Sequence record: MT446412.1 | From: Escherichia virus TH41 | Direction: 5' to 3' (one strand) | DNA length: 64,000 nt | In this document: piece by piece, positions 36,841-38,902 of the stretch | How positions within the stretch are numbered: the first letter of the stretch is position 1 | How the letters are laid out: each line of letters begins with the position of its first letter | The notes under the pieces: generated by a model | Seen by the model: the letters and a program-made list of their open reading frames with translations, nothing else | What the model was told of the DNA's origin: nothing | Databases searched by the model: none | Position numbers and translations under genes: made by a program

Positions 36841-36961
36841 CAAAAACGCGTTATTATTAATAAGTACCCTCTATTACCAAAGGTTCTTCCCTCAAAGAAC
36901 CTTTCATAATAGCATGTGCTATTAATCAAACTTACTTTACTTAATTTTACTTGAGGTGCTT

Positions 36962-37231
36962 ATGTTAGTATTAAAATTAGCTTTTTACGACCCTAAAACA
37001 AAGACAACCACTACCAAACGTTGCTCTATTTCGTATGAGTGTCAATTTGGTGAAATTCAGCATCCAACAGGCGAAACCTTTATGTCAATTGGTTGTTCAA
37101 CATTCAATAAAGTCAAATTAATCCCGTTGGTTAATACGGCGGCTTATCTGGTTGCTCCAGAAGAAATGACTTATCATACAATTCAGCATATGGTTAAAGA
37201 TGATAATGCTCCTGCTGGATTTGTAATTTAA
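36962..37231 (+). CDS. Hypothetical protein (89 aa)
   Basis: ORF ending 5 bp before the tRNA pair; start ATG preceded by GAGG. Confidence 0.4.
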   Translation: MLVLKLAFYDPKTKTTTTKRCSISYECQFGEIQHPTGETFMSIGCSTFNKVKLIPLVNTAAYLVAPEEMTYHTIQHMVKDDNAPAGFVI

Positions 37232-37236
37232 TTTTA

Positions 37237-37312
37237 GGCCCTGTAGCTCAATTGGTTAGAGCATCCGGCTCATAACTGGCAGGTTTCCGGTTCAAGTCCG
37301 GATGGGGCCACC
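37237..37312 (+). tRNA. tRNA with CAT anticodon (Met or Ile2-type)
   Basis: Hand-folded cloverleaf: 7-bp acceptor stem (two G-U pairs), D-arm GCTC/GAGC, anticodon loop CTCATAA, T-loop TTCAAGT, discriminator A. Confidence 0.75.
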
Positions 37313-37389
37313 CGGGGTGTAGCTCAATTGTATAGAGCAACGGTCTTCTAAACCGTAGGTTGTGGGTTAGAATCCCACCACCCCGACCA
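37313..37389 (+). tRNA. tRNA-Arg (anticodon TCT)
   Basis: Hand-folded cloverleaf: perfect 7-bp acceptor stem, anticodon stem ACGGT/ACCGT with loop CTTCTAA, T-arm GTGGG-TTAGAAT-CCCAC, encoded CCA. Confidence 0.85.
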
Positions 37390-37404
37390 ATTACTGAGGA
37401 TATT

Positions 37405-37644
37405 ATGGTTATTAGTGAATCATATGCAGTTATGGATATAACCAGCAACGAGCTGGTTTATAGCTTTGATGAGTTTGACGAAAATGATAAACAAGTCCCA
37501 TGGTTTGCATTAACTGCTCCACCTGAACATAATAAATATCTAAGTTTCCCGACTCGCAGACTAGCAACAAATTTTATGGAATTCAATGACCTTGATTCCA
37601 ATTATAAGGTTGTTAAAGTCAAATTAGCTATTACAATTGAATGA
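37405..37644 (+). CDS. Hypothetical protein (79 aa) just downstream of the tRNAs
   Basis: ATG after GAGGA SD at the 3' end of tRNA-Arg; acidic protein. Confidence 0.45.
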   Translation: MVISESYAVMDITSNELVYSFDEFDENDKQVPWFALTAPPEHNKYLSFPTRRLATNFMEFNDLDSNYKVVKVKLAITIE

Positions 37645-37649
37645 GAAGC

Positions 37650-37830
37650 CGGGTCGCTACCGGTAAGTCGTCGGGGCCTGTTCCCTGGGGTATTGTTCCT
37701 CCCACAGTTTTCTGTGTTCTGGTTCTTTACTATCACATCAGGCACGGCGCACCCTTTTACGGAGTTTTTCCAGAGCGGGCGGTGCGCCCGGTAGTATGAG
37801 AAATCCGAGCGGATGGTGCATCCGGTACTA
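37650..37830 (+). ncRNA. Candidate structured small RNA downstream of the tRNA pair
   Basis: About 180 bp with no plausible ORF, locally GC-rich, with stems GGCGCACC/GGTGCGCC (37746-37788) and CGGATG-gtg-CATCCG (37810-37824); resembles the placement of stable RNA species next to T4 tRNA genes. Confidence 0.3.
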
Positions 37831-37835
37831 TGGAA

Positions 37836-37843
37836 TATAAATA
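37836..37843 (+). promoter_or_regulatory. Late promoter box TATAAATA upstream of ORF 37875
   Basis: Exact TATAAATA on plus strand 32 bp upstream of the ATG. Confidence 0.45.
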
Positions 37844-37874
37844 TTAACAACAACCCTAATAATGGAAAAACAAA

Positions 37875-38258
37875 ATGCTTACATATGCAGAATTTTTAAA
37901 TCGCAATACCATCACCGAATCCGTACTGACTGAAGCTGGCAAATTTTCTTTAGTGGCTCCAGAAAAAGCCGGCGTTTCAATTGGTGACCGTGTTATGTTC
38001 AAGAAACCAGTTAATGGCGTTTCTTGGGGTATCGTAACTGGGTTTGGTATCAAAGCTAAAGATGTTAAAAACGCCGCCGCGCCAGGTGCTAAACTAGCCG
38101 GTTCCAAAGTTTCAACTTATATGGTTCGTCCTAAACAGTCTCCAGGTAATGGTGCCGCTGACTGGGTTGGTGCTCCAATCGAAATCGCTCGTGATAAATT
38201 CTTGAACATCACTGACCGTGCCAACGAACGCGCTGCAATGGCATTCGCTCGCGGATAA
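37875..38258 (+). CDS. Candidate internal protein with divergent CTS-like N-terminus
   Basis: Starts MLTYAEFLNRNTITES (..TY.EF.. plus I-T-E cleavage-type motif); late promoter box upstream; terminator downstream. Confidence 0.45.
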   Translation: MLTYAEFLNRNTITESVLTEAGKFSLVAPEKAGVSIGDRVMFKKPVNGVSWGIVTGFGIKAKDVKNAAAPGAKLAGSKVSTYMVRPKQSPGNGAADWVGAPIEIARDKFLNITDRANERAAMAFARG

Positions 38259-38295
38259 GAACACTTGCCTTGCAGGTGGAACCCCGACAAGGTAT

Positions 38296-38325
38296 AGCCC
38301 CTTCCGAAAGGTTGGGGCTTTTTTA
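38296..38325 (+). terminator. Rho-independent terminator
   Basis: gcccc...ggggc stem with GAAA-containing loop followed by TTTTTT. Confidence 0.6.
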
Positions 38326-38347
38326 TAAATCAACTAAAGAGAAACGT

Positions 38348-38902
38348 ATGAAACTGTTAAAATATTTGAGTTGGATTCTGTTAGTTCCGCTGGATTTTAT
38401 CTCCATGATTCTGGCCGTTATCCTGGCTCCATTTGTAGTTCCGTTCCATAATAAAAAGACTGGTAAACTTCCGTTCGGGTTTGATTGGATGATGACTTAT
38501 GATAATCCGATTGATGGTGACCGTGGTCATATCAAACGTTGGTCAAAAATCCGAAAATGGCCATTAGGTGTTTACTTCCAACGAGTAGCCTGGCTCTGGC
38601 GAAACAAAGCATACAATTTTGCTTACCACAAGCTCGGTCGTGATTGCAATTCAGAATTCCATTATAAAGGTAATCCTGATGTTGAATCTGGTTCCCCAGA
38701 TAAAGCTCATCATGGATGGCTCTTTATGTGGACGGACAATGCCTGGGGTGTTTTTGCTTCTGTTCCTTATCTTAAGGTCGGTGGAATCACCTTTTATCTG
38801 CGTGTTTATTGTGGCTGGAAGCTCAAGAGCCTTCTGTCCCGACCCATCCCTAAGGCTATGCTCGCCTTTCATATAAATCCGTTCCGCTTTTATAAGAACT
38901 AA
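38348..38902 (+). CDS. Membrane-anchored protein (184 aa)
   Basis: N-terminal hydrophobic segment LSWILLVPLDFISMILAVILAPFVV; start placed at ATG with AAAGAGAAA leader. Confidence 0.5.
   Translation: MKLLKYLSWILLVPLDFISMILAVILAPFVVPFHNKKTGKLPFGFDWMMTYDNPIDGDRGHIKRWSKIRKWPLGVYFQRVAWLWRNKAYNFAYHKLGRDCNSEFHYKGNPDVESGSPDKAHHGWLFMWTDNAWGVFASVPYLKVGGITFYLRVYCGWKLKSLLSRPIPKAMLAFHINPFRFYKN

Follow-up and report, generated by a model that had tools for sequence, protein, structure and literature searches.

Escherichia virus TH41 carries an unannotated rnaD ortholog with an exchangeable central hairpin beside two tRNA genes

INTRODUCTION

Phage T4 encodes stable RNAs next to its tRNA genes. One of these, rnaD (species 2 RNA), has been known from T4 for about 50 years, and to our knowledge the function of the species 1 and species 2 RNAs has been unknown since the 1970s. 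The order of genes in the T4 reference genome (NC_000866) is tRNA-Arg, rnaD (119 nt), rnaC (139 nt), about 280 nt and then e.8; in phage T2L it is tRNA-Arg, the open reading frame (ORF) trna.2, rnaD and rnaC. In both T4 and T2, rnaC is followed by ACACTTGCCTTGGCAGGTGGAACCCCGACAAGG and a terminator. Here we describe the corresponding locus in a 64,000-nt stretch of Escherichia virus TH41 (MT446412.1; this whole stretch is called the window below), in which two tRNA genes are followed by an ortholog of rnaD, rnaC is absent, and the rnaC slot is filled by a cassette made up of a double hairpin, a late promoter and an ORFan.

In T4, a dimeric precursor, p2Sp1, is processed by host endonucleases, and in the classical view the tRNAs of T-even phages supplement the decoders of codons that are rare in the host. 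The T4 RNAC and RNAD molecules originate in the tRNA region and have no known role (PMC3014915), and RNA-seq classes both as late RNAs, with Northern validation by an RNAC probe (PMC9697503). In the T4-like phage BW1, a single-nucleotide polymorphism (SNP) in rnaD was the only mutation common to three lines evolved on ECOR34, and relative virulence on ECOR34 went from 0.17 to 0.98 with this SNP (PMC12685909). In the hyperplastic regions of T4-type phages, GC-rich stem-loops beside promoters are attenuators or terminators (PMC2839356, PMC4122927).

RESULTS

An rnaD ortholog follows two tRNA genes

Positions 36900-38400 of the window are 99.9% identical to Escherichia phage UPEC01 and 95-98% identical to members of the Straboviridae/Tevenvirinae/Gaprivervirus group (for example EAWsc9, TH44, MN01 and VR20), which are phages of about 170 kb. 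The window thus comes from a T4-like myovirus of Escherichia coli. The genes of the locus and the helices of its stable RNA are as follows.

37641-37753, plus strand: rnaD ortholog (T4 species 2 stable RNA) of about 113 nt, with a central hairpin of type B, from T2L homology, alignment, covariance model and fold
37648-37652 with 37660-37664, plus strand: rnaD helix P1, with the loop GUCGCUA at 37653-37659
37667-37673 with 37745-37752, plus strand: rnaD helix P2
about 37689-37730, plus strand: rnaD central hairpin
37237-37312, plus strand: tRNA-Ile2 gene, anticodon CAT, by ARAGORN and by the Rfam tRNA model (RF00005; 62.2 bits over 37237-37310)
37313-37389, plus strand: tRNA-Arg gene, anticodon TCT, reading AGA, by ARAGORN and by the Rfam tRNA model (73.7 bits, E 3e-14, over 37313-37386)
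37405-37644, plus strand: 79-aa ORF of unknown function (phrog_33509, E 5e-57; no Pfam match), with its stop codon overlapping the 5' end of rnaD

The segment 37641-37753 is an ortholog of T4 and T2 rnaD by sequence, synteny, structure and an independent covariance model, as an earlier note on this DNA had suggested in proposing a counterpart of the T4 stable RNAs beside the tRNAs. A sensitive BLAST search of 37640-37875 against 50,697 phage records matched the T2L tRNA-cluster entry AJ880101, in which the feature "rnaD: species II RNA" is 88.4% identical to query bases 5-114 over 110 nt. When the window, T4 and T2L sequences were aligned together, both ends proved nearly identical, with GAGAA-CCGGGTCGCTACCGGTAAGTCGTCGG on the 5' side and ATCACA...ACGGCGCACC on the 3' side. 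Moreover, a covariance model built from 19 rnaD sequences with central hairpins of types A and C (see below), with type B and the window left out, gave one match on the two strands of the 64 kb, at 37643-37753 on the plus strand (55.1 bits, E 9.5e-12), and this match covered the full model.

Compared with the rnaD genes of T4 (T4s002) and T2 (AJ880101), the window's copy likewise lies 3' of tRNA-Arg, with which it shares the strand, and closes the tRNA cluster on its 3' side; it has the same 5' 32 nt and 3' 25 nt or so, the same helices P1, P2 and P3, and the central hairpin of T2. It follows the 79-aa ORF, as T2L rnaD follows an ORF, whereas T4 rnaD abuts tRNA-Arg. It differs from both in that its 3' end is CACCC, leaving the A of a CCA-like end unencoded, in that no rnaC follows, and in private changes in the P3 region (GGGGC-CUG ... 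AUCAGGCA). A sigma-70-like site, TTGTTA-16-TACAAT (37610-37637), ends 3 nt 5' of rnaD; we did not accept it as a promoter, as such sites were found 4 times with 6.3 expected and the site is absent in T4, where rnaD directly adjoins tRNA-Arg.

Sequences of rnaD occur in 732 phage records, with identities spread from 60% to 99%. The two tRNAs and rnaD are thus of known kinds, and the copy at 37641-37753 is a new, unannotated member of the rnaD family: rnaD is annotated in none of the Gaprivervirus records that we examined, and several of these carry spurious coding sequences (CDSs) over it. Minus-strand "hypothetical protein" CDSs laid over rnaD and the hairpins occur in the close relatives L144 (641-799) and L146 (545-799). 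For the window, the outcome is mostly one of annotation, namely that the records examined have an unlabelled rnaD, in several cases spurious CDSs, and mostly a tRNA-Ile2 labelled tRNA-Met. Taken together, we are almost certain of the identities of the two tRNAs and of rnaD, and we consider it probable that the whole is a reduced tRNA and stable-RNA locus of a T4-like Gaprivervirus, an overall judgment that reflects mainly these identities.

rnaD has one fold, with a swappable central hairpin

Our comparison of rnaD drew on 26 distinct sequences, taken from T4, T2L, ten Gaprivervirus records and IMG/VR contigs; a pattern search of viral contigs supplied two of the variants (L138 and L139), and its four other matches were due to chance. 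Single-sequence folds and RNAalifold gave one architecture in all 26 variants, with conserved ends and helices supported by covariation. P1 has a stem of 5 bp and a loop of 7 nt, GUCGCUA, that is invariant; two A residues further on begins the closing helix, P2, in which GUCGUCG is paired with CGGCG(C)AC at the 3' terminus; and a 4-bp helix, P3, is followed by the long central hairpin. Most sequences close P1 with an A-U pair; the window and L008 do so with G.U, and L138 and L139 with G-C. One pair of P3 is divided between U-A and A-U (11 sequences each), with U.U in the other 4, and five pairs of the central hairpin are changed on both sides. In the alignment of 19 sequences, 96.1% of cells are paired, compared to 31-47% when the partners are slid by 1-3 columns, and the covariation score (0.173) was reached by none of 500 shuffles (0.098 ± 0.009). 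Both invariant and variable G.U pairs fix the strand of rnaD as plus.

The central hairpin keeps its shape in at least three sequence types that cannot be aligned with one another: type A in T4, VR20 and many others, type B in T2, the window and EAWsc9, and type C in L005, L008 and L013. Types A and B are polymorphic both within Tequatrovirus (T4 versus T2) and within Gaprivervirus (VR20 versus the window). The central hairpin is a swappable module, constant in shape and exchangeable in sequence, on a fixed scaffold.

The window's rnaD keeps P1, P2 and the central hairpin, and its P3 register differs. At about 37675-37680 and 37738-37742, GGACUGAUG is changed to GGGGC-CUG and AGCAGAAA to AUCAGGCA, and these private changes create a GC-rich 5-bp helix, GCCUG/CAGGC, whose register is off that of the consensus P3. 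UPEC01, which is 99.6% identical over this stretch, presumably has the same changes. We also considered a kissing interaction between the P1 loop of rnaD and two GUAGCG motifs in rnaC, and dropped it since 5.3% of shuffles equal it.

For the old question of what the species 1 and species 2 RNAs do, a secondary-structure model of rnaD backed by covariation should be usable, as should the findings that the central hairpin is a swappable module and that rnaD persists without rnaC. In combination with the adaptive rnaD SNP published in 2025, these results suggest concrete experiments. We regard the structural model and the modular hairpin as useful by-products, and not as a discovery on the window.

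The CAT tRNA is of the lysidine type

ARAGORN found exactly two tRNA genes in the 64 kb, with anticodons cat and tct. As the earlier note had it, they abut without a spacer: the discriminator base of the first tRNA is separated from base 1 of the second by nothing but the CC of an incomplete CCA end (37311-37312). Both scores given above, including that of the first tRNA, are well over the Rfam gathering score of 29 bits.

Judged by its sequence, the CAT tRNA is a tRNA-Ile2 of the lysidine type, predicted to read AUA after modification of C34, and not a tRNA-Met; the earlier note had raised this possibility, and the comparisons bear it out. In 5,426 complete Escherichia coli genomes, every match to this tRNA throughout the ranking was annotated tRNA-Ile and none tRNA-Met. 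The median number of matching places was two per genome, consistent with ileX and ileY. The CAT tRNA is 80% identical to T4 tRNA-Ile and 76% identical to K-12 ileX (L150:10599-10674). Its acceptor stem GGCCC/GGGCC (GGCCCUG/UGGGGCC), found also in T4 tRNA-Ile and in E. coli ileX and ileY along with the CAT anticodon, yields C4-G69 and C5-G68, which reportedly are identity elements for TilS; tRNA-Met (metT, GGCUACG) and tRNA-fMet are, we take it, without this stem. The window's tRNA differs from these tRNA-Ile genes in that its CCA end is only partly encoded. In its anticodon arm (37263-37279), the first stem pair, 27-43, is a U-C mismatch; this pair is G-A in T4 tRNA-Ile and G.U in E. coli ileX, and so is not Watson-Crick in any of the three CAU tRNA-Ile sequences. 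The ortholog in the EAWsc9 record is labelled tRNA-Ile2(cat), and most public records label it tRNA-Met (for example L146, L147 and L148).

We compared codon usage in phage and host with one crude ORF caller for both, using 49 kb of K-12 as the host sample. With these calls, AUA occurs 8.9 times per thousand codons in the phage window and 2.5 times in the host sample (3.6-fold), and AGA occurs 6.3 and 0.7 times (9-fold). The tRNA-Ile2 (CAU, to which host TilS would add lysidine) and the tRNA-Arg (UCU) would be decoders for the two rarest codons of E. coli, and the higher use of AUA and AGA in the phage fits the supplementing role of T-even tRNAs. The phage keeps the two tRNAs that matter most for host-rare codons.

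The non-coding stretch has two parts with separate histories

No reading frame is conserved over the 230 bp from the end of the 79-aa ORF to the conserved start codon that comes next, at 37875 (37645-37874), and GC content is 56%, compared to 40.6% in the window and 55% in the tRNAs, in keeping with the earlier description of a non-coding stretch with GC-rich stems after a short ORF. That description treated the stretch as one structured region. It consists of two parts with separate histories, 37641-37753 and 37773-37832; the former is the rnaD counterpart, and the GC-rich stems lie mostly outside it and are unrelated to rnaC. Folded as one unit, the 191-nt stretch had no unusual stability (z = -1.0 on the plus strand, -0.26 on the minus strand), and we rejected a single RNA over the whole 191 nt on the basis of this non-significant plus-strand value. 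Rfam scans of the window, with gathering and with permissive thresholds, found the two tRNAs and nothing else. Rfam has neither an rnaC nor an rnaD family, and a scan of T4's own locus returned only its tRNA; since the T4 RNAs themselves are not in Rfam, its silence on the stretch is uninformative.

The 3' part and the spacer before it contain:

37754-37772, plus strand: U-rich spacer with a GGAG motif (CUUUUACGGAGUUUUUCCA), from the sequence, where a candidate endonuclease cut would free the 3' end of rnaD
37773-37798, plus strand: hairpin repeat unit 1, a direct repeat, stem 37776-37781 with 37785-37790, loop GUG
37807-37832, plus strand: hairpin repeat unit 2, a direct repeat, stem 37810-37815 with 37819-37824, loop GUG

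The two units are tandem copies of a 26-nt sequence, GAGCGG-NN-GGTGC-NN-CCGGTA-N-TATG, each forming a 6-bp hairpin; the second is the CGGATG/CATCCG stem that had been noted before, and it is real. The hairpin motif has two matches in the 64 kb (37775-37793 and 37809-37827), with 0.02 expected. Units 1 and 2 differ at two stem pairs, each altered on both sides (GC/GC versus AU/AU). Among 11 relatives, hairpin 1 is CGGGCG...CGCCCG in 4 and CGGACG...CGTCCG in 7, with no one-sided intermediates, and the haplotype carried is independent of the rnaD central type. In hairpin 2 the sole variation is from A-U to G.U (L142 and L149), a change that keeps the pair on the plus strand only.

The double-hairpin element is found in only 15 phage records, at 95-100% identity. 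A search of IMG/VR with the motif gave more than 120 single, scattered matches in unrelated GC-rich contigs, which is the chance level for 15 specified bases, and the pair of motifs was found there only in VR20. We rejected a REP-like or other host origin, as the element had no match in the 5,426 E. coli genomes.

A cassette occupies the rnaC slot

The remaining features of the slot are:

37836-37843, plus strand: T4-type late promoter TATAAATA, 32 nt 5' of the ORF127 start codon and invariant in 11 relatives
37875-38258, plus strand: 127-aa ORFan (ORF127) of the rnaC-replacing cassette, N-terminus MLTYAEFL...TITESVLTE
38260-38324, plus strand: conserved flank (AACACTTGCC...GGTGGAACCCCGACAAGG) and GC hairpin with a T-run, from sequence comparison, directly following rnaC in T4 and T2

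We found rnaC in 740 phage records, and in 681 of the 740 it is at least 95% identical to T4. The slot exists in three states among the relatives: with rnaC, with rnaC cleanly absent, and with the window's cassette. In the clean absence (L005, L011-L013 and L015), the 3' end of rnaD is joined to ACACTTGCC at a GGCGCACCGA|ACACTTGCC junction. As rnaC has been deleted in these relatives with rnaD kept, rnaC is dispensable in nature and rnaD needs no rnaC neighbor. The only thing that T4 rnaC has in common with the window's cassette is its genomic slot, between rnaD and the flank; rnaC has a T-arm-like CCGGGTTCGAATCCCGG at its 3' end, and the double hairpin has none. The two do not align, and with 62-86% of shuffles scoring as high in local alignment, we rejected the double hairpin as a remnant of rnaC.

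Possible roles of rnaD and the hairpins

By analogy with T4, rnaD would most likely be cut from the tRNA-operon transcript by host tRNA-processing nucleases, with a cut within the U-rich spacer and then trimming back to P2. The spacer has 1-nt indels among the relatives, and is thus non-coding.

Our best guess is that rnaD acts in trans, as a structured RNA whose binding partner would be a factor of the host or of the phage, and that its variable, host-dependent part is the central hairpin, although we give little credence to any specific function. In one such proposal, which we think improbable, rnaD is a host-interaction RNA in which P1, P2 and P3 form a scaffold and the exchangeable central hairpin sets a host-specific activity; this may be, for example, that of a decoy or inhibitor of a host RNA-directed defense or nuclease. 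The proposal fits the existence of at least three unrelated central types, at least two of them common to Tequatrovirus and Gaprivervirus, as well as the retention of rnaD where rnaC is lost. It also fits the BW1 SNP, which by the coordinates in that paper would lie about 41-46 nt from the 3' end of rnaD and so inside the modelled central hairpin (PMC12685909).

For the two hairpins, the role that we find most plausible, and hold tentatively, is at the level of plus-strand RNA: they would be an exonuclease barrier or attenuator that ends or protects the tRNA-rnaD transcript and insulates the late gene. In all other arrangements of this plastic region, a terminator hairpin occupies the slot before TATAAATA, and the barrier or attenuator role is consistent with a canonical terminator holding the same position in the sister cassettes.

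Several points weigh against this account of the locus. The processing sites and the stability of the RNA in this phage are extrapolated from T4, and the functional guess for rnaD draws on one evolution experiment and a pattern of variation, not on mechanism. The window's rnaD has its privately remodelled P3, with GCCUG/CAGGC out of the consensus register, and codon usage was compared on crude ORF calls, with only a small sample of the host. As for the hairpins, the 11 sequences that have them are nearly identical (15 records in all), so that the compensatory change may have arisen just once. Neither hairpin leads into a U-tract, the sequences that follow being GUAGUAUG and GUACUAUG, and neither was flagged by a terminator scan; with this and their 6-bp stems they would make poor intrinsic terminators. 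The double-hairpin cassette is a small, lineage-specific variant of uncertain role.

Alternative readings of the stretch

We considered that 37602-37853 might encode protein, as some public records have it by annotating hypothetical minus-strand proteins there. Mechanically, there are indeed ORFs of 83 aa (minus strand) and 52 aa (plus strand), and P8 and pEC-M719-6WT.2 annotate such CDSs. However, the plus-strand ORF is found in the window and in none of the relatives, the minus-strand ORF is interrupted in all seven type-A relatives, the relatives are separated across the stretch by indels of 1 and 2 nt, which are not multiples of three, and the stretch matches an experimentally known RNA; a coding function is therefore extremely improbable. 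The stretch had also been credited with a stem of GGCGCACC and GGTGCGCC. This 8-nt perfect complement is present (with GGCGCACC at 37746-37753), and its functional version would have the 3' arm of hairpin 1 (GGUGCGCC, 37782-37789) pair with the 3' end of rnaD in the precursor. Such a complement arises in only 1.9% of dinucleotide shuffles, and the pairing is kept in all variants, through G.U at most. Yet this significance is marginal, hairpin 2, the paralog of hairpin 1, has no such partner, and T4 and T2 rnaC have no equivalent complement. Furthermore, the long-range helix does not take in the position in the 5' arm of hairpin 1 that changes from G to A; only the local hairpin, CGGGCG/CGCCCG, which covariation supports better, explains this change. 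We consider it quite unlikely that the long-range stem is functional, and equally so that it competes with the closing helix of rnaD and thereby controls 3' processing or folding.

With the local hairpins preferred, two other roles can be proposed for them. The element (about 37757-37834) could be the gene of a small stable RNA that stands in functionally for rnaC as partner to rnaD: it fills exactly the slot of rnaC, has the GC content of the RNA genes (56%), and keeps its stems paired by compensatory and wobble changes on the plus strand. Nevertheless, its similarity to rnaC does not exceed chance, it lacks the tRNA-like T-arm, it is only about 75 nt long and confined to 15 records with no Rfam match, and other relatives delete rnaC without replacement, so that a partner is not required; we think such a gene unlikely. 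Alternatively, the hairpins could act in DNA, as a recombination junction or protein-binding palindrome left by insertion of the cassette, and have no role as RNA. This would suit a plastic zone with shuffled cassettes, and the stem-loops of promoter-early stem-loop (PeSL) cassettes are reported points of recombination (PMC2839356). However, the motif is not repeated elsewhere in the window, the G.U variant of hairpin 2 would leave C opposite A, a mismatch, in a cruciform or on the opposite strand, and binding sites usually conserve sequence and do not covary, which makes a purely DNA-level role very unlikely.

The late promoter, ORF127 and the flank

The barrier or attenuator that we favor would sit directly in front of a late gene. 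The promoter sequence TATAAATA occurs 17 times in the window, compared to 5.0 ± 2.3 expected, and its strand matches gene orientation; we found no sigma-70-like site between 37754 and 37874. The window's cassette resembles the described PeSL cassettes (PMC2839356, PMC4122927) in that GC-rich stem-loops directly precede a promoter and an ORFan and the surrounding region gains, loses and exchanges cassettes. PeSL cassettes have a sigma-70 early promoter, whereas here the promoter is late, and, unlike PeSL, the cassette has two tandem hairpins whose motif does not recur in the 64 kb. Thus the cassette is PeSL-like in its logic, with neither the early promoter nor, within the window, the repeated motif.

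ORF127 had no match in Pfam or PHROG. Its start, MLTYAEFLNRNTITESVLTE, resembles the N-terminal targeting peptide of the T4 internal head protein IPI (MKTFKEFTSTTTPVSTITE), and in relatives this N-terminus (MKTYNEFLNESVLTEA) recurs on ORFs of 154-205 aa, each of which follows a late promoter and whose C-termini are unrelated. From these sequences, ORF127 and its counterparts may be polymorphic injected head proteins. We rejected homology of ORF127 to T4 IPI itself, since BLASTP gave E = 0.53 and only the N-terminal motif is alike.

On the 3' side of ORF127 (38260-38332), the flank hairpin AGCCCCTTCCGAAAGGTTGGGGCT is followed by its T-run; a simple terminator scan missed it, probably owing to two internal U.U mismatches. 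Beyond it, a near-consensus late promoter, TATAAATC, precedes the DUF7338 gene (38345-38902). Over the window as a whole, the 12 copies of TATAAATA below 21.5 kb (1394-21464) all lie on the minus strand, and the 5 above 30.7 kb (30752-54899) all lie on the plus strand; thus, late transcription appears to switch direction between about 21.5 and 30.7 kb.

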